Source: Escherichia coli
Lineage (GTDB): Bacteria > Pseudomonadota > Gammaproteobacteria > Enterobacterales > Enterobacteriaceae
Length of the DNA: 64,000 bases
Assembly (NCBI RefSeq): GCF_048403405.1
Contig: NZ_CP183129.1
Strand: one strand, 5' to 3'
The translations under genes were made by a program, and so were the position numbers. A model generated the notes under the pieces. It was given only the letters and a program-made list of their open reading frames with translations. It ran no database searches and was not told where the DNA came from. The first letter of the stretch is position 1; each line of letters starts with the position of its first letter. Positions 1,644-52,137 of the stretch are shown piece after piece.

Positions 1644-1645
1644 TG

Positions 1646-1669
1646 AAAGCCGGAGAATGCTCCGGCTTT
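1646..1669. terminator. Bidirectional hairpin between convergent yaeF and nlpE
   Basis: Perfect inverted repeat aaagccggag / ctccggcttt with a 4-nt loop, lying between two convergent stop codons. Confidence 0.6.
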
Positions 1670-1672
1670 CAA

Positions 1673-5830: not shown

Positions 5831-7972
5831 TTATCCCGCCATTTTTAGGACTCGTACGCGGTAAACGCCGTCTTCGTCCTGTTTCGCGCCGTGAATATCC
5901 GTTTCAAAACCGGGGTAATGTTGCCCTACGGAACAAAGCATCAGTAGAAAATCGAGTACTGTGCGGCTCTCTTTGGTCAGCATTTCTCCTGGCATCAGCA
6001 GCGGTACGCCCGGTGGATAAGGCAGGATCATATTTGCCGACACCCTACCAACCAGTTGTTCCAGCGCAATGGTTTCTACTTCGCCTTTAATCTGCCTCTG
6101 CCATGCCTGATGTGGCGTCATGATCATCTCCGGCAAGGTATCGAATGCCCGCAACATCAAACCGGGAAGATCGTGTTTACGAATCAGCTTATGGATCCCT
6201 TGCGCCAGATCCTGAATGCGCATATTGCGGTAGAAATCGGGATCTTCTGCATAGAGATCGGGTAGCATATTTTTGATCCGCAGGTTGAGATCGTAAGAGC
6301 GCTTAAATTCCGTCAACCCACGCAATAATCCCATTGCTTTGGTTTTATCGATTCCAATACTAAAGAGAAACAGCAGGTTATAAGGACCGGTTTTCTCTAC
6401 TACGATCCCTCGTTCGTCGAGGAATTTTGCTACCAGCGCCGCCGGGATCCCCTCCTCGCTCATATTGCCCTGCTCGTCCATCCCCGGTGTCAAAATAGTG
6501 ACTTTAACCGGATCGAGAAACATATGATCGGCATCCGCATCGTTAAAGCCGTGCCACTGTTCGCCAGGCGCAACGGGCCAGCATTCGGCTTCATCCACCT
6601 GCGGCGGTTGCCAGATATCGAAAAACCAACCGTCAGACTCTTCCCGCAGCCGCTGGACCTCTTTGCGAAAATGCAGCGCCCGCTCCACCGAACGGTTAAT
6701 CAGCCGTTTGCCCGGATTACCACGCAGCATCGCCGCCGCCGTCTCAACCGAAGCAACAATGGGATAACTGGGCGAGGTGGTGGTATGCATCATAAAGGCT
6801 TCGTTAAACGCCTCTTCGTCATACTCGCCTTTAATGTGGATCAGCGAAGCCTGCGATAACGCCGCCAGCATTTTGTGGGTCGACTGCGTTTCGAAGATCA
6901 CTTTTCCCGCAACACGCTCGCCGCTCATACCACTTTTACCCTGGTAGATCGGATGAAAATGGGTGTACGGCACCCAGGCAGAATCGAAGTGAATCGACGG
7001 GACATCCAGCGTCTGTTTGATCCAGTCGGTGTTGTAGAGCAAGCCATCATAGGTGGAGTTGGTGATCACCGCATGAACCGGCCATTGAGCTTGCGTGGTA
7101 GCAGCGACTTTCTCTTCGATGCTGTCGCGAGTAAATTCACGGCGCGGGATCCCACCAAGAATCCCCAACGCATTACGCGTCGGTTTCAGCCAGACTGGCA
7201 CTACATCGTTCATCATCAACAGATGCGCCAGCGATTTATGACAATTGCGGTCGATCAACAGCGTACTGCCGGACGGCGCGGCGTACATACCCACAATTTT
7301 GTTAGACGTCGATGTTCCGTTGGTAACGATATAACTCTGTTCCGCGCCAAAAGTCCGCGCGATGTACTCTTCCGCTTCCAGGTGTGGCCCGGTGTGGTCG
7401 AGCAACGAACCAAGCTCGGTAACCGAAATAGAGACATCAGCCTTAAGAGTATTCCCGCCGAAAAAATCATAAAACAGACAGCCAACCGGGCTTTTTTGAT
7501 ATGCGGTGCCGCCCATATGACCCGGCGTACAAAAGGTGTACTTCCGCTCTTTGACGTAGGTAAACAAGGCTTTCGTGAACGGCGGTGTAATGTTATCAAG
7601 ATATTCGTCGGTGTACTGACGCATACGAATGGCGATATCTTCTGCCTGCCCCAGCGCATATTCAAAAAACCAGAGCGCCATCCGCATATCCTGCACGCTG
7701 ACATCCATCGTCGAGTGGGTGTTGATGAAGGCATAAAGCGGGAGATATTCATTAAGCTGATTGATATCGCTACATAAATCGAGACTGTACTCATCCCAGT
7801 CAAAAATCACGCCGCAAATTCGAGGGTTATGTTCAATAAATTTCAGCAAATCAACGCTGTTTTGTGGCCAGATAATCTGAAAGCCTTGCGCCACCAGCGC
7901 CGACTCCAGTTCTTTGATGGGCTCATCTTTATAAAAGACGCCATGCGGTCCCATAATGGCAATGATGTTCAT
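5831..7972 (-). CDS. ldcC: Lysine decarboxylase, constitutive (LdcC)
   Basis: 713-aa ORF with fold-III PLP-decarboxylase features (...STHKMLAA... Lys region); position next to accA. Confidence 0.92.
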   Translation of the reverse strand: MNIIAIMGPHGVFYKDEPIKELESALVAQGFQIIWPQNSVDLLKFIEHNPRICGVIFDWDEYSLDLCSDINQLNEYLPLYAFINTHSTMDVSVQDMRMALWFFEYALGQAEDIAIRMRQYTDEYLDNITPPFTKALFTYVKERKYTFCTPGHMGGTAYQKSPVGCLFYDFFGGNTLKADVSISVTELGSLLDHTGPHLEAEEYIARTFGAEQSYIVTNGTSTSNKIVGMYAAPSGSTLLIDRNCHKSLAHLLMMNDVVPVWLKPTRNALGILGGIPRREFTRDSIEEKVAATTQAQWPVHAVITNSTYDGLLYNTDWIKQTLDVPSIHFDSAWVPYTHFHPIYQGKSGMSGERVAGKVIFETQSTHKMLAALSQASLIHIKGEYDEEAFNEAFMMHTTTSPSYPIVASVETAAAMLRGNPGKRLINRSVERALHFRKEVQRLREESDGWFFDIWQPPQVDEAECWPVAPGEQWHGFNDADADHMFLDPVKVTILTPGMDEQGNMSEEGIPAALVAKFLDERGIVVEKTGPYNLLFLFSIGIDKTKAMGLLRGLTEFKRSYDLNLRIKNMLPDLYAEDPDFYRNMRIQDLAQGIHKLIRKHDLPGLMLRAFDTLPEMIMTPHQAWQRQIKGEVETIALEQLVGRVSANMILPYPPGVPLLMPGEMLTKESRTVLDFLLMLCSVGQHYPGFETDIHGAKQDEDGVYRVRVLKMAG

Positions 7973-39899: not shown

Positions 39900-39910
39900 A
39901 GAGAGAAGAT

Positions 39911-39933
39911 GTGCCGGATAGTTTATCCGGCAC
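39911..39933. repeat. Inverted repeat between convergent yadS and erpA
   Basis: gtgccggata-gtt-tatccggcac perfect 10-bp stem; no T-run on either strand, so not a canonical intrinsic terminator. Confidence 0.5.
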
Positions 39934-39945
39934 ATGAACAACAGA

Positions 39946-43304: not shown

Positions 43305-43327
43305 TGCCTCGCCCACCGGGCGAGGCA
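43305..43327 (+). terminator. Terminator hairpin after hemL (convergent with fhuB)
   Basis: tgcctcgccc-acc-gggcgaggca perfect stem followed by a T-rich stretch, immediately before the fhuB stop on the opposite strand. Confidence 0.7.
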
Positions 43328-47049: not shown

Positions 47050-49293
47050 TTAGAAGCGGAAGGTTGCGGTTGCAACGACCTGACGTTCTGCGCCCCAGAA
47101 GCAGCCATAGGTGTTAAAGCAGCTGGCGACGTATTCACGATCGAACAGGTTGTTGACATGCAGCGCCACGTTGGAGCCAGCCATGCCGACTCGCGCCAGA
47201 TCATAACGCACTAACGCATCCACGACCGTATAACTTCCCACTTTAAAGGAGTTAGCCGGATCACCATAGCTGGAGCCAGTATAACGACCACCGGTGCCCA
47301 GCGTCAGACCTGAAAGCGGACCGTCAAAGAAGGTATAGTCAGCCCACAGCGAAGCCATGTGTTTTGGCACCTGTGCAGGCGTATTGCCTTTATAGGTAGT
47401 GTCGGTGGTGTATTCCGCATCGGTGTAAGTATAAGAACCGACTACGTTAACACTCGCCGACAGCGCCGCTTTCGCTTCGATTTCTACGCCACGAGCGCGG
47501 ATCTCGCCACCTTCAACCGAGAAGAAGGAACCCTCAGGGTCCGCCATCAGGTTGTTGGTTTTAGTGAGATTATACACGGCACCAGTAACCACAATTGGAC
47601 GATCTTCCGGTACATATTTCACGCCGACTTCATACTGCTTACCTTTAGACGGTGCGAAAATATTACCATCCTTCCCAACTTGCGAAGAAGGTTCAAACGA
47701 TTCGCTATAGCTGAAGTAAGGTGTTACACCATTATCAAACAGGTAGTTAACACCACCACGCCAGGTAAACTGTTTGTCATCACGTTTATCGGTCGTTCCC
47801 GCTACGCGGTTAAGAGATTCTTGATCTGCCCAGTCGTAACGACCGCCCAGGGTGACCAGCACTTTATCCCACTGCGCCTGATCCTGAACATAAACGCCCG
47901 TTTGCTTCTGCTTATTCAGAATGCGGTACGGACCGGAGTTATCCGGGTCTTTCGCATTGAAGTCGAAATCGGTATTCACCGGATTGTACAGATCGAGCAG
48001 CGGTACGGAGTCGTCGTAACCAAACCAGGCGTTGATGTCATTACGCATACGCATAAAGTCGACACCGGTCAGCAGGGTGTGGTCGATATCGCCAGTGGCA
48101 AACTTGCTCTGCAACTGGGTATCAACGGAGAAGTTTTGCAGCTTCTCATCATCAACGACGTATTTACGTGCCAGGTAGTGACCTTTATCGGCTGGCGCTA
48201 AAGCGGCACACTGTTTGCTGTAAGCATTCGCCGGATCGGAGCAGACGCCGTAACCATAAACGCTGTTTTGCGAGGTTTTGTTTTCAGCAAAGCGCAGGTT
48301 CTGACGCACAGTAAAGGTGTCGTTAAATTCGTGATCGAAGCTATAGCCCACCATCTTCTCATTACGAGAATAGGTGTTGTTCTTCGCCCCTTCGTTAAAA
48401 TCTGTCGGCAGACGCTTACCGTTCGGCAGCGGCTCAACGGTACCCTCTTTCGGCAACCAGCCGTAATAACCGGTTTCCGGCTCGTTCTGGAAGTAAGAAA
48501 GGAAGGTGAAATTGGTTTTATCATCCGGACGCCAGGTGAACGCCGGTGCAATAGCATAACGCTGCTCTTCTGAGCCTTTCTGCTGGGCATTGGCAGAACG
48601 CGCAAGACCGGTCAGGCGATAAGAGTAAACACCGTCATCATCCAACGCATCGCTAAAGTCAAAACCAGTCTGGAACAGGCTGTCAGTACCGGCTTTAAAC
48701 TGAACTTCTTTCAGCGGTTCAGTAGTCGGACGCTTGCTGACCATATTCAACAGACCGCCAGGACTGCTTTTACCGTAAAGCACGGAAACCGGGCCACGCA
48801 TAATTTCAGCGCGTTCCAGCATATACGGGTCAATGACCGCATCGTTATAGAAGTTGCCCTGCAACTTCAGGCCATTCAGATAGTTATTCTGGCTTTGGCC
48901 TTCTGCCGCAAAGCCGCGAATGATCAGGTGGTCATAGGTGTTGGATGCGCCACGCGTACCAACAGAGACACCCGGCGTGTAGCTAAGCGCCTCTTTTACT
49001 GACTTCGGCTGATGCAGCGCCATCTCTTCGGCGGTCACAACAGAAATAGACTGTGGCACTTTTTGAATCGGCGTATCAGTTTTGGTGCCGGTAGCGGACT
49101 GTCGCGCCGCAATAGTTGCAGCTGGCCCCCATGCGCTTTCTTGCGGCGCAGGTGCAGCGGTAACGGTGATAGTGTCTTCTTTCGGTTCAACCGCTGCCTG
49201 TGCATAAACAGACATGCCGCTAACCGCTGTGGCTACTACAACTGCGATTTTACGCAGTGAGTGTTTTGGCTGAGCAGTTTTGGAACGCGCCAT
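47050..49293 (-). CDS. fhuA: Ferrichrome outer-membrane transporter FhuA (TonB-dependent; phage T1/T5/phi80 receptor)
   Basis: 747-aa ORF with a signal peptide, TonB box DTITVTA, and a C-terminal barrel ending ...ATATFRF. Confidence 0.96.
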   Translation of the reverse strand: MARSKTAQPKHSLRKIAVVVATAVSGMSVYAQAAVEPKEDTITVTAAPAPQESAWGPAATIAARQSATGTKTDTPIQKVPQSISVVTAEEMALHQPKSVKEALSYTPGVSVGTRGASNTYDHLIIRGFAAEGQSQNNYLNGLKLQGNFYNDAVIDPYMLERAEIMRGPVSVLYGKSSPGGLLNMVSKRPTTEPLKEVQFKAGTDSLFQTGFDFSDALDDDGVYSYRLTGLARSANAQQKGSEEQRYAIAPAFTWRPDDKTNFTFLSYFQNEPETGYYGWLPKEGTVEPLPNGKRLPTDFNEGAKNNTYSRNEKMVGYSFDHEFNDTFTVRQNLRFAENKTSQNSVYGYGVCSDPANAYSKQCAALAPADKGHYLARKYVVDDEKLQNFSVDTQLQSKFATGDIDHTLLTGVDFMRMRNDINAWFGYDDSVPLLDLYNPVNTDFDFNAKDPDNSGPYRILNKQKQTGVYVQDQAQWDKVLVTLGGRYDWADQESLNRVAGTTDKRDDKQFTWRGGVNYLFDNGVTPYFSYSESFEPSSQVGKDGNIFAPSKGKQYEVGVKYVPEDRPIVVTGAVYNLTKTNNLMADPEGSFFSVEGGEIRARGVEIEAKAALSASVNVVGSYTYTDAEYTTDTTYKGNTPAQVPKHMASLWADYTFFDGPLSGLTLGTGGRYTGSSYGDPANSFKVGSYTVVDALVRYDLARVGMAGSNVALHVNNLFDREYVASCFNTYGCFWGAERQVVATATFRF

Positions 49294-49332
49294 TGGTATA
49301 TCTCTGATGTAAAGTGAATGATAACGTAAACG

Positions 49333-49365
49333 AGAATGATTATTATAAAGATAAGATAATATTCG
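49333..49365 (-). promoter_or_regulatory. Putative Fur box in the fhuA promoter
   Basis: AT-rich gagaatgattattataaagataagataatatt with GATAAT/ATTATC-like hexamers 40 to 70 nt upstream of the fhuA start. Confidence 0.55.
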
Positions 49366-49460
49366 AAACGCTGGCGGGTTCGCAAGCGGTACGCAATCTG
49401 AGCGTTCCTGAAGGGTTAATAAACAACCAGATGAAAAGAAAGGGTTAATACTTTGGGTGG

Positions 49461-49487
49461 GATGTTATTTTACCGGATGGCTACTCG
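49461..49487. repeat. Inverted repeat (REP-like hairpin) downstream of mrcB
   Basis: taccggatggc-tactc-gccatccggta perfect 11-bp stem; no trailing U-run on the mrcB transcript. Confidence 0.5.
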
Positions 49488-49512
49488 CCATCCGGTATGT
49501 CACGCTTAGACG

Positions 49513-52044
49513 TTAATTACTACCAAACATATCCTTGATCCAACCGGCTACACCGTCGCTGTCTTTCTGCTCTTGCTGAGCAGGTTGCTGTTGCGGCTGT
49601 TGCTGCGGCTGAGAAGACTGATCAAACGGATTGCCTGACGGCTGCTGCTGCATCTCACTCTGCTGGCACAGCGATTGCGGATCGCTGGTCCAGACCGGCA
49701 AGACACGCATACCACCGCTGCAAACAAAGTTGCCGTCGTAGTCCACGCCCATATCTGCAATATCTTCTGGCGGAACAAGATTTAGCGGCGTTGGCGTCTG
49801 GTTAGCCAGATAACGCTGATAAATCGACATTGCCCCGCTGGCTCCATACAGTTTGGTCGGCTGGTTGTTATCACGGCCGACCCAGGTGATGGTCACCGTG
49901 CTGCCGTCAATGCCCGCAAACCAGGTATCTACGTTATTGTTGGTAGTCCCTGTTTTCCCTGCCAGATGCAGGTTCGGGTATTTCGCCCCAAGCTGACGCC
50001 CCGTACCACGTTGTACCACCTGCTGCATGGTCCATAGTGTCAGATATGCCGCCTGCGCCGGAACCGCGCGTTCTGCCTGCGGGAAGCTCTGATACAGCAC
50101 CTTGCCATCTTCTGCGATGACTGAACGCAGCGCAGAAAGCGGTGCACGGTTACCACCGCTGGCGATGGTCTGGAATGCCTGCGCCACTTCGATTGGCGTT
50201 AAGTTCAACGCCCCCAGCAGCATTGCCGGAACCGGATGCAGCTGATCTTTCGGTACGCCCAGTTTAATCCAGGTCTCCGTAACCGCAGGCAGCCCCAGCG
50301 CCATCCCCAGATTCACCGTCGGCACGTTCATCGAACGGGTCAACGCATCCACCAGCATCACTCTGCCGCTTTCGCTATAACGACGGTCATCGTTCTGCGG
50401 TGACCAGACCTGGCCATTCGGCTGACGTAGCGCGATTGGCGCATCCGCAATCCACGTGTTCAGGCGATAGATTTTCGGCTGGCTTAAGGCCGTCAGATAA
50501 GTCGCTGGTTTTGCAAGAGAACCAATCGAACGACGCGCCTGCATCGCACGGTTGTAGCCCGCAAACTGCGGCTCAGAACCACCGACCATCGCACGAACTT
50601 CACCACTAAAGCGGTCGACGACCACAATCGCAGTTTCAAGATCGCTCAACTTACGCTGTTTCTTCAGTGCCGGAATGCCTTCCACGGCGGCTTTTTCTGC
50701 CGCGTCCTGGGCCACCGAGTCAAAGGTAGTGAAGATCTTCACGCCGGAGAGATCTTTTACCTTATCGCCCAGTTTTGCCTGCAGCTCCTGACGCACCAGT
50801 TGCATAAAGGCTGGCTGAGGAGAGATCACCCCACCGCGCGGCTGAACACCCAGCGGACGTGCACTCAACATGTCATAGAGTTCTTGATCAATAATCTGTT
50901 GCTGTTGCAGCAAACGTAGCACCAGGTTACGTCGCTCCAGCGCCAGTTTCGGGTTACGCCACGGGTTGTAGATGGACGCCCCTTTCACCATACCCACCAA
51001 CAGCGCCTGCTGATCGAGGCTCAATTCTTCTACCGGACGACCAAAGTAATACAAGCTCGCCAGCGGGAAGCCGCGGATTTCGTTGTCGCCGCTCTGACCG
51101 AGATACACCTCGTTCATATACAGCTCAAGAATACGGTCTTTGCTGTAACGCGCGTCCATGATCAGCGCCATGTAAGCTTCGTTCGCTTTACGCCAGTAAG
51201 AGCGCTCGCTGGAGAGGAACAGGTTTTTCACCAGCTGTTGCGTCAGCGTACTCGCACCCTGCACCGTGCGTCCGGCGGTCAGGTTTGCCAGCACCGCACG
51301 TCCGATGGAGTAGAGACTGATCCCATCATGCTCGTAGAAATGGCGGTCTTCTGTCGCCAGCAAAGTATCCACCAGCAAATCAGGGAAACCACTGCGCGGC
51401 ACAAACAAACGCTGCTCACCGTTTGGCGAGGAGATCATGGTGATCAGACGCGGATCAAGACGGAAGAAACCGAACTGACGGTTGTTCTCCATATTGACGA
51501 TCGTCGCCAGATGATCGCCATCAAAGGTCAGACGCGCACGCACCTGCCCTTCTTTACTGTCCGGGAAATCAAACGGACGGCGAATCATCTCAATGCTGTT
51601 GGCCTGCACGGTAAATTCGCCGGGACGGGTCATTTTCGACACCTGACGATACTGTGTTGCCTCCAGCAGCTTCACCATCTCGTTCTTGCTGATGGTCATG
51701 TCTGGCTCAAGGTTGACCATTCGGCCATAAACTGCCGCGGGCAATTGCCAGACCTTGCCATCAATACGGCTGCGAATTTTTTGATCGAGATAAACGCCGT
51801 AAATGGCGATCAGCACGGCAAAAACGATAGCCAGTTTTAGCAGCAGCCATAGCCAGCCGCGTTTGCCACGAGGCTTACGCCCTTTGCCTTTGCCCTTACC
51901 TTTGCGCGGCATCGGTTCTTCATCCTCATAGTCATCATAATCGTCGTAATCGTCATCTTCGTAACGACGACGGCTTACCTTTTGTTTGACCGGACGCGTC
52001 GGTTTCCCTTTGCGTCCAATTGGCTCGCGGTCATTCCCGGCCAT
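49513..52044 (-). CDS. mrcB: Penicillin-binding protein 1B (bifunctional transglycosylase/transpeptidase)
   Basis: About 843-aa product [22 protein letters not shown]... with a transmembrane anchor, glycosyltransferase domain and transpeptidase domain; a second in-frame Met follows the acidic tract. Confidence 0.95.
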
Positions 52045-52137
52045 GCTTTTTCTCCGCAATATTCAGGCGCAAAAGCCCGATTTTCTGTTCTTCTGTTGCA
52101 AGACAGAAGAAGATATCTCTCAAATTTGCTTTGGTCT

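Follow-up and report, generated by a model that had tools for sequence, protein, structure and literature searches.

A Fur operator and a REP-like, probably REP-derived hairpin share the mrcB–fhuA spacer of Escherichia coli

Overview

The spacer between mrcB and fhuA in E. coli is shared by two independent and ordinary elements, namely, the Fur operator of fhuA and a hairpin located shortly after the mrcB stop codon. We consider that a Fur operator together with a REP-derived 3′ hairpin of the mrcB transcript is the best overall explanation for this region, and we would give it a probability of about 0.6. The two parts differ in strength: the operator is already known, while the origin and role of the hairpin are drawn from comparison with relatives and with published REP elements.

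The window, that is, the whole stretch of 64,000 nucleotides that was analysed, is matched by E. coli chromosomes at up to 100% identity and runs opposite to K-12 numbering, window position x corresponding to K-12 position 167484 + (49293 - x). The spacer occupies 49294..49512 and is 219 bp long, as in K-12, and both genes lie on the minus strand:

47050..49293, minus strand: fhuA coding sequence (ferrichrome outer-membrane receptor), an ORF of 747 aa with its start codon at 49293..49291
49513..52047, minus strand: mrcB coding sequence (PBP1b), with its stop codon TAA at 49515..49513

The fhuA annotation is carried by the E. coli genomes that match at 100% identity, and the protein is 99.6% identical to K-12 FhuA. 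A search of 48800..50000 against Rfam (E ≤ 10) found no known RNA family, the mir-2032 and isrG matches being at chance level and far under their gathering scores. On the other side of mrcB, an RNA 3′ end is recorded by Adams et al. 2021 at a distance of 94 nt before the start codon (about window position 52141; K-12 164636, plus strand in K-12); it belongs either to the terminator of hrpB or to a transcript that ends prematurely in the mrcB leader.

The Fur Operator and the fhuA Promoter

The original prediction had pointed to a cluster of GATAAT/ATTATC-like hexamers upstream of fhuA and had connected it with Fur repression of the ferrichrome receptor. The cluster lies where it was said to lie, and the following features can be placed around it:

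49320..49361, minus strand: Fur operator of overlapping GATAAT/ATTATC-like hexamers, with the core 19-mer CTTTATAATAATCATTCTC at 49332..49350 and more matches extending into ACGTTATCATTCAC
49356..49385, minus strand: predicted sigma-70 promoter of fhuA (9/12 in a consensus scan)
49294..49349, minus strand: predicted fhuA 5′ leader, derived from the promoter prediction, holding the downstream half of the Fur cluster and the ribosome-binding region (CAGAGATATACCAATG)

The best 19-mer match to the Fur consensus GATAATGATAATCATTATC reaches 14/19 at 49332..49350 on the minus strand, and it is overlapped by 13/19 and 12/19 matches in a 3- and 6-bp register across 49320..49356. Matches of 14/19 occur nine times in the 64-kb window, so that a single match is not unusual and the single-consensus score discriminates poorly; for this reason, an array score was used instead. 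Five contiguous GATAAT/ATTATC-like hexamers at 49332..49361 score 23/30, which is the unique maximum of the window (the next score is 20) and was reached by one of 30 simulated 64-kb sequences. By sequence, a Fur box is either a 19-bp consensus site or a run of at least three GATAAT-like hexamers, and the fhuA site is one by that definition.

By position, a Fur box overlaps the promoter of the gene that it regulates, and this also holds here against the predicted promoter, which consists of a -35 element TTGCGA (49385..49380), an 18-nt spacer and a -10 element TATTAT (49361..49356), with an implied start at about 49349. Given these positions, the hexamer array covers the -10 element and the start region. 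Fe2+-Fur bound to the operator would thus block RNA polymerase at the -10/start region when iron is plentiful; binding and control are taken from the literature, and the geometry of occlusion follows from the predicted promoter.

That literature is explicit. Chen et al. 2007 (NAR, PMC2189734) described a fhuA Fur-site cluster at K-12 167439, which is window position 49338, with three sites over 31 bp and 19.5 bits, located 45 nt before the start codon, and obtained a gel shift with purified Fur. The Fur-2 iModulon of a nine-strain Fur study includes fhuA, fhuC and fhuD (PMC10164565), and a further paper states that fhuA transcription is inhibited by Fur. The cluster in the window and that of Chen et al. 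share the locus, the position, the overlapping sites of about 31 bp and the promoter of an iron-uptake operon; there is no difference of substance between them, and the operator is identical to that of K-12 across the site. Both the place of the cluster and its attribution to Fur are therefore borne out, the latter by a site that coincides with the published gel-shift cluster and by the iModulon membership.

The sequence around the operator is also well kept. Starting at CGTTTCG..TATTAT and ending at the ATG, the block does not change among divergent E. coli alleles and hardly changes in Enterobacter, Citrobacter amalonaticus and another enterobacterial contig, while the DNA farther upstream diverges; six sequences drawn from several lineages agree without exception in the CTTGC of the -35 element and in CGTTTCG..TATTAT. 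Reading the cluster as merely AT-rich promoter DNA with no Fur site finds some encouragement in the commonness of single 14/19 matches, but the gel shift at the exact site, the unique top array, the invariance across genera and the presence of fhuA in a Fur iModulon all speak against it; its probability is negligible, and it is already refuted by the published binding data. The hexamer array at 49320..49361 is almost certainly the Fur operator of the fhuACDB operon, which is textbook biology.

Two further observations concern the operator. E. coli B27 has a 5-bp deletion that aligns to window positions 49353..49357, where one unit of a tandem TTATC-TTATC is lost; the deletion falls between the -10 hexamer and the Fur core and shifts the operator relative to the promoter. 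In addition, there is a sigma-70-like match, ATGATA-17-TATTAT, at 49318..49346 on the plus strand, antisense to fhuA and within the operator, which is probably a by-product of the AT-rich palindromic sequence.

The Hairpin After mrcB and Its Variation in E. coli

The other element proposed from the sequence was a perfect 11-bp inverted repeat, just downstream of mrcB and without a U-run:

49471..49497, minus strand: perfect hairpin with an 11-bp stem and a 5-nt loop, TACCGGATGGC-GAGTA-GCCATCCGGTA, arms at 49471..49481 and 49487..49497
49498..49512, minus strand: 15-nt spacer from the mrcB stop codon to the foot of the hairpin

The repeat is real and perfect, although it had been placed at 49461..49487, which is 10 nt off; it begins 15 nt past the TAA of mrcB. 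The predicted RNA energy is -20.9 kcal/mol. On the transcribed minus strand, the hairpin is followed by AAAATAACAT, the first 8 nt of which (AAAATAAC) are A-rich and contain one T. The hairpin is thus without a U-run, as had been claimed, and the terminator scan did not call it. Perfect inverted repeats with stems of at least 10 bp are enriched in the window, with seven distinct ones against about 0.4 matches expected per simulated sequence. Others are located at 1644..1671, 34556..34583, 43305..43327, 59373..59399 and 62925..62954. A perfect 12-bp palindrome at 39909..39935 (ATGTGCCGGATAGTTTATCCGGCACAT) has the same CCGGAT/ATCCGG core and, by K-12 coordinates, probably lies in the convergent gap between erpA and yadS.

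In BLAST searches, the 45 nt around the hairpin were present in 4855 of 5426 complete E. coli genomes, in one to three places each (median 2); the third BLAST place is seen in K-12-like genomes. A scan for the exact pattern gave only two copies per genome. The same scan found 53 matches in metagenome contigs, 35 of them between mrcB and fhuA, at least 16 between ygiD and ygiC and one in an unrelated soil contig, and a single contig of 4.64 Mb held exactly two exact copies, one at each of the two E. coli loci. The second copy sits where ygiD and ygiC converge and takes up their 37-bp gap, with the two stop codons 4 and 7 nt away; it has identical 11-bp stems with the loop GAGT and is without T-runs. 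In one contig (L147), this copy adjoins a y-type REP.

Among seven E. coli alleles of the mrcB hairpin, the stems are invariant, while the loop (GAGTA, GAGTT, GAGCT) and the flanks vary. Adding the 35 metagenome copies, variation is still confined to the loop and flanks, but these copies were picked by the exact stem pattern and so carry no weight for stem conservation. Covariation is absent because no stem position varies, and that the stems are constant inside a single species says little about selection. Position 49499, two nucleotides 5′ of the stem, has all four bases (C, A, T and G) among E. coli alleles next to the constant stem, and it may be a mutational hot spot beside the palindrome.

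A Fimbrial Operon as the Alternative Allele

The hairpin belongs to a segment that is missing from a minority of E. coli genomes:

49456..49512, minus strand: variable segment of 57 bp, including the hairpin, which about 10% of E. coli genomes lack

Of 5421 genomes, about 570 have a match that begins only at query position 146, that is, from about 49455 towards fhuA. Two such hairpin-less genomes were inspected, E. coli DA33135 (locus L005, 6697..12160) and WL297 (locus L004), and in both a chaperone-usher fimbrial operon of about 5.3 kb lies between mrcB and fhuA, with four genes for a subunit, a chaperone, an usher and a 336-aa adhesin. On the left, the operon joins exactly at the mrcB stop codon (window 49512), and on the right at about 49455. 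The fimbrial allele opens with a different U-less hairpin, CGCTCTCCGC-TTAT-GCGGAGAGCG, with an energy of -20.4 kcal/mol and 9 nt after the stop. We also considered whether the operon is Ucl/F17-like; no PDB chain matches the N-terminal domain of its adhesin, whereas solved structures of UclD have been reported, so the operon is probably not Ucl.

The exchange of the 57-bp segment for an operon of 5.3 kb, with a junction precisely at the mrcB stop, could suggest that the hairpin is a recombination joint, either a scar or a target of insertion or removal of the operon. We regard this as very unlikely, since, in the loci that were read, the junctions are free of direct repeats, integrase and tRNA, the identical hairpin between ygiD and ygiC is not associated with this operon, and in C. 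amalonaticus the slot is filled by a REP pair without any island.

The Same Slot in Related Genera

To look at this position in relatives, their mrcB neighbourhoods were fetched via MrcB homologues. In Enterobacter, mrcB is followed by CCCCCC-GAAA-GGGGGG and then T7, and in three more enterobacterial contigs the stem is a different one each time, with a run of six or seven T behind it. In these four cases, canonical intrinsic terminators stand at the slot of the hairpin. They share with the E. coli hairpin the position, the orientation to mrcB and a stable GC-rich stem-loop, but the E. coli hairpin has an A-rich tail and no U-tract.

C. amalonaticus differs from all of these in having a genuine REP pair (a BIME, with GTAG/CTAC) directly 3′ of the mrcB stop, made up of GCCGGATGGCGCTTCGCTTATCCGGCCTAC, a linker and GTAGGCCGGATAAGGCGTTTTCGCCGCCATCCGGC, with the arms GCCGGATGGCG..TTATCCGGCCTAC, linker, GTAGGCCGGATAAGGCG..GCCATCCGGC. 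Aligned globally with this pair, the E. coli hairpin places its 5′ arm on that of the first REP and its 3′ arm on that of the second, and the interior of the BIME is missing from E. coli. Every lineage, as well as both E. coli alleles, keeps a strong stem-loop 4 to 30 nt from the mrcB stop.

Relationship to REP Elements

The REPs of E. coli (y, z1 and z2, group 2) are defined as sequences of 29 to 37 nt that form an imperfect palindrome with a two-base bulge and have GTAG at the foot; there are hundreds of copies, mostly paired into BIMEs, and they are recognised by TnpA_REP/RAYT. Both GTAG and the bulge are needed for binding and cleavage by TnpA_REP, so that mutating GTAG or removing the bulge abolishes activity (PMC3333891, PMC3479197, PMC8266576). 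The published y REP of E. coli reads GTAGGACGGATAAGGCGTTTACGCCGCATCCG.

The mrcB hairpin resembles a y-type REP or BIME in several respects. It is a GC-rich palindrome with a REP-related stem, extragenic and directly after the stop at the 3′ end of a gene, and a BIME occupies the orthologous position in C. amalonaticus. When aligned, its lower stem CCGGAT/ATCCGG and upper stem GGC/GCC equal the y REP stem minus the AA/GC bulge. In contrast, the features that define a REP are missing. There is no GTAG 5′ of the palindrome foot and no CTAC 3′ of it (the flanks are gaCA-TACC and GGTA-aaat), and GTAG occurs only within the loop of this allele (GAGTAG), being missing from the commoner loops GAGTT, GAGCT and GAATT. 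The stem has 11/11 perfect pairs and so no AA/GC bulge, the length is 27 nt and not 29 to 37, and the hairpin is unpaired, with two exact copies per genome as opposed to hundreds. A scan for canonical REPs by their consensus sequences found none in the window.

Perfect palindromes of this kind are present elsewhere in the family. Several of the form GCCGGATGGCG-loop-CGCCATCCGGC occur in Citrobacter genomes, at least six of them in one genome. When the pattern CCGGATGGC-N3-8-GCCATCCGG was searched across genome contigs, most of the matches listed were chance occurrences in GC-rich genomes. The Citrobacter palindromes mostly lie right after stop codons and have no GTAG/CTAC (loci L011, L012, L022-L028, L052 and L053, from Citrobacter and Enterobacter genomes), and they look like a class of bulge-less REP derivatives.

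Given that a perfect stem and the loss of GTAG each abolish binding and cleavage, the mrcB hairpin is predicted to be inert to TnpA_REP. Failing the defining features and yet having related arms, it is best called REP-like and probably REP-derived, with no membership in the strict sense. On the basis of these alignments, we favour an origin from a REP, and we infer that the hairpin may be the fossil of a REP or BIME that once stood in the slot. Either a BIME could have collapsed to leave it, or an imperfect palindrome could have been corrected into a perfect one; the case for collapse comes from one outgroup and from short arms. A recent tool with a much broader definition reports about 4,000 "REPs" in MG1655, and the mrcB hairpin might be included under such a definition.

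The original wording, a REP-like element in preference to a simple terminator, holds as it was put, given the lack of a U-tract, the arms that match a REP, the C. amalonaticus REP pair in the slot and the nearly identical copy between ygiD and ygiC. The comparison with REP families that had been suggested as a check gave a divided answer: the stem is related to the y REP, but GTAG, bulge, length and copy number all fail.

Possible Roles of the Hairpin in the mrcB Transcript

In terms of an intrinsic terminator, the hairpin offers a stable, GC-rich stem-loop (-20.9 kcal/mol) that begins 15 nt beyond the TAA, and lacks the U-tract, AAAATAAC being what follows the stem. Intrinsic termination needs a weak rU:dA hybrid. 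BIMEs are also said to be associated with Rho-dependent attenuation, a finding that reportedly goes back to Espeli et al. in 2001. Just downstream of the hairpin there is a tract of suitable composition:

49411..49470, minus strand: C-rich, G-poor tract, a candidate Rho-loading (rut) region, with 16 C and 4 G in 60 nt

This tract (49470..49411) is in the top 0.5% of 60-nt windows on the same strand of the window, which is not extreme, and its C>G bias overlaps a module that is kept in genera with a real terminator, so the bias may have another cause.

Since the hairpin would not terminate by itself and a C-rich, G-poor tract lies next to it, Rho-dependent termination with trimming is the likeliest model. 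In the mrcB mRNA, the hairpin would fold, 15 nt beyond the stop codon, into a stem-loop of high stability, which, without a U-tract, would not end transcription alone. Rho would then end mrcB transcription on the tract downstream, and 3′ exonucleases would trim the RNA until they met the hairpin, and the latter would thereby protect the mrcB message. Together, the hairpin and the Rho site would keep mrcB read-through out of the Fur-controlled fhuA promoter. We put this mechanism forward tentatively, at somewhat less than even odds, and the role that it would assign to the hairpin is that of a stabiliser or of a Rho-assisted insulator.

Published systems offer parallels. REPs are reported to stabilise upstream mRNA (Newbury et al. 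1987), and Rho-dependent transcripts that end at protective hairpins after trimming are the topic of Dar and Sorek 2018 (PMC6061677). The latter hairpins are, like that of mrcB, stable U-less stems at a gene end, with a C-rich, G-poor tract behind them; they differ in that, for mrcB, Rho dependence and the 3′ end are proposed from the sequence. The parts of the Term-seq and bicyclomycin tables that were searched list no mrcB 3′ end at K-12 16729x-16734x and assign no primary end to the gene, which is weakly expressed.

Other roles deserve consideration. The stable stem, perhaps aided by NusA or NusG, might release RNA polymerase without a U-tract, in which case the hairpin would be a working non-canonical intrinsic terminator. 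Its position, exactly that of the canonical terminators in four other lineages, its strong stem (-20.9 kcal/mol) and the lack of any other terminator-like site in a scan from mrcB to the fhuA promoter are in line with this idea, but the 8 nt after the stem contain one T, the hairpin does not pass the terminator scan, the requirement for an rU:dA hybrid stands against it and the tables searched have no 3′ end there. We consider it unlikely.

It is somewhat less improbable, though still doubtful, that the hairpin is a neutral relic, that is, a dead REP or BIME fragment that persists through the youth of the segment and the low diversity of E. coli. The hairpin is without the features required for the action of the REP transposase, about 10% of genomes do without the whole 57-bp segment, the content of the slot turns over between lineages and no covariation is seen. 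Neutrality sits less well with the retention of a strong stem-loop at 4 to 30 nt from the mrcB stop in all lineages and both E. coli alleles, and with the fact that the seven alleles vary in loop and flanks and not in the stems.

A different proposal is that the hairpin throttles the synthesis of PBP1b. Liang, Rudd and Deutscher reportedly found in 2015 that REP stems about 15 nt or less from a stop codon hinder the terminating ribosome and provoke trans-translation. The spacings observed are compatible with such an effect, as the stem lies 15 nt from the stop in this allele and 9 nt from it in the alternative one, and the copy between ygiD and ygiC is 4 and 7 nt away from its two stops. Nevertheless, 15 nt is the edge of the reported range, and the terminators of other genera lie farther from the stop (about 11 to 25 nt), so there is no evident conserved spacing; we find this proposal quite improbable. 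The preferred reading of the hairpin is still that of a REP-derived 3′ stem-loop that would protect the message, possibly with help from Rho.

A Conserved Module Upstream of the fhuA Promoter

Between the hairpin and the fhuA promoter, one further feature is found:

49406..49450, minus strand: conserved module of about 45 bp with an exact 11-nt direct repeat, TATTAACCCTT, at 49450..49440 and 49421..49411, the repeats being 29 bp apart

The motif TTAACCCTT occurs twice in the window, both times in the module, where 0.22 occurrences would be expected, and the module is single copy per genome. Upstream of the fhuA -35 element, it is nearly identical in C. amalonaticus and recognisable in Enterobacter, with three copies (its counterparts in relatives lie at L192 5658..5706 and L132 ~6080..6140). 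It survives even though all of the DNA between it and mrcB has been replaced in each lineage.

Several candidates for its identity were tried and set aside. Judged by eye against consensus sequences, ArcA, IscR type 2, PmrA, NarL, OmpR and PhoP do not fit in sequence or spacing. A second promoter within the module does not fit by eye either, and the scan called no promoter-like site; a small ORF (MKRKG) on the plus strand is not conserved in Enterobacter.

One could combine these elements in a single reading, in which E. coli would have lost the canonical mrcB terminator that its relatives retain and would use the collapsed REP/BIME hairpin and a Rho site instead, and the TTAACCCTT module would bind a second, so far undescribed regulator of fhuA. 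Such a combination has a low probability. If it were true, a mobile-repeat fossil would set both the stability of the PBP1b mRNA and the insulation of the Fur-controlled fhuA promoter.

Implications

The TTAACCCTT module is the only loose thread of this spacer, the rest of which matters little beyond tidy annotation. For the annotation of REPs, the hairpin illustrates that elements described as "REP-like" can be dead derivatives that fail every recognition test of the REP transposase. For the family, it illustrates how a single intergenic slot turns over among close relatives, which hold an intrinsic terminator, a REP pair, a REP-derived perfect palindrome or a fimbrial operon in the same place, and through this turnover some 3′ stem-loop after mrcB is always kept.
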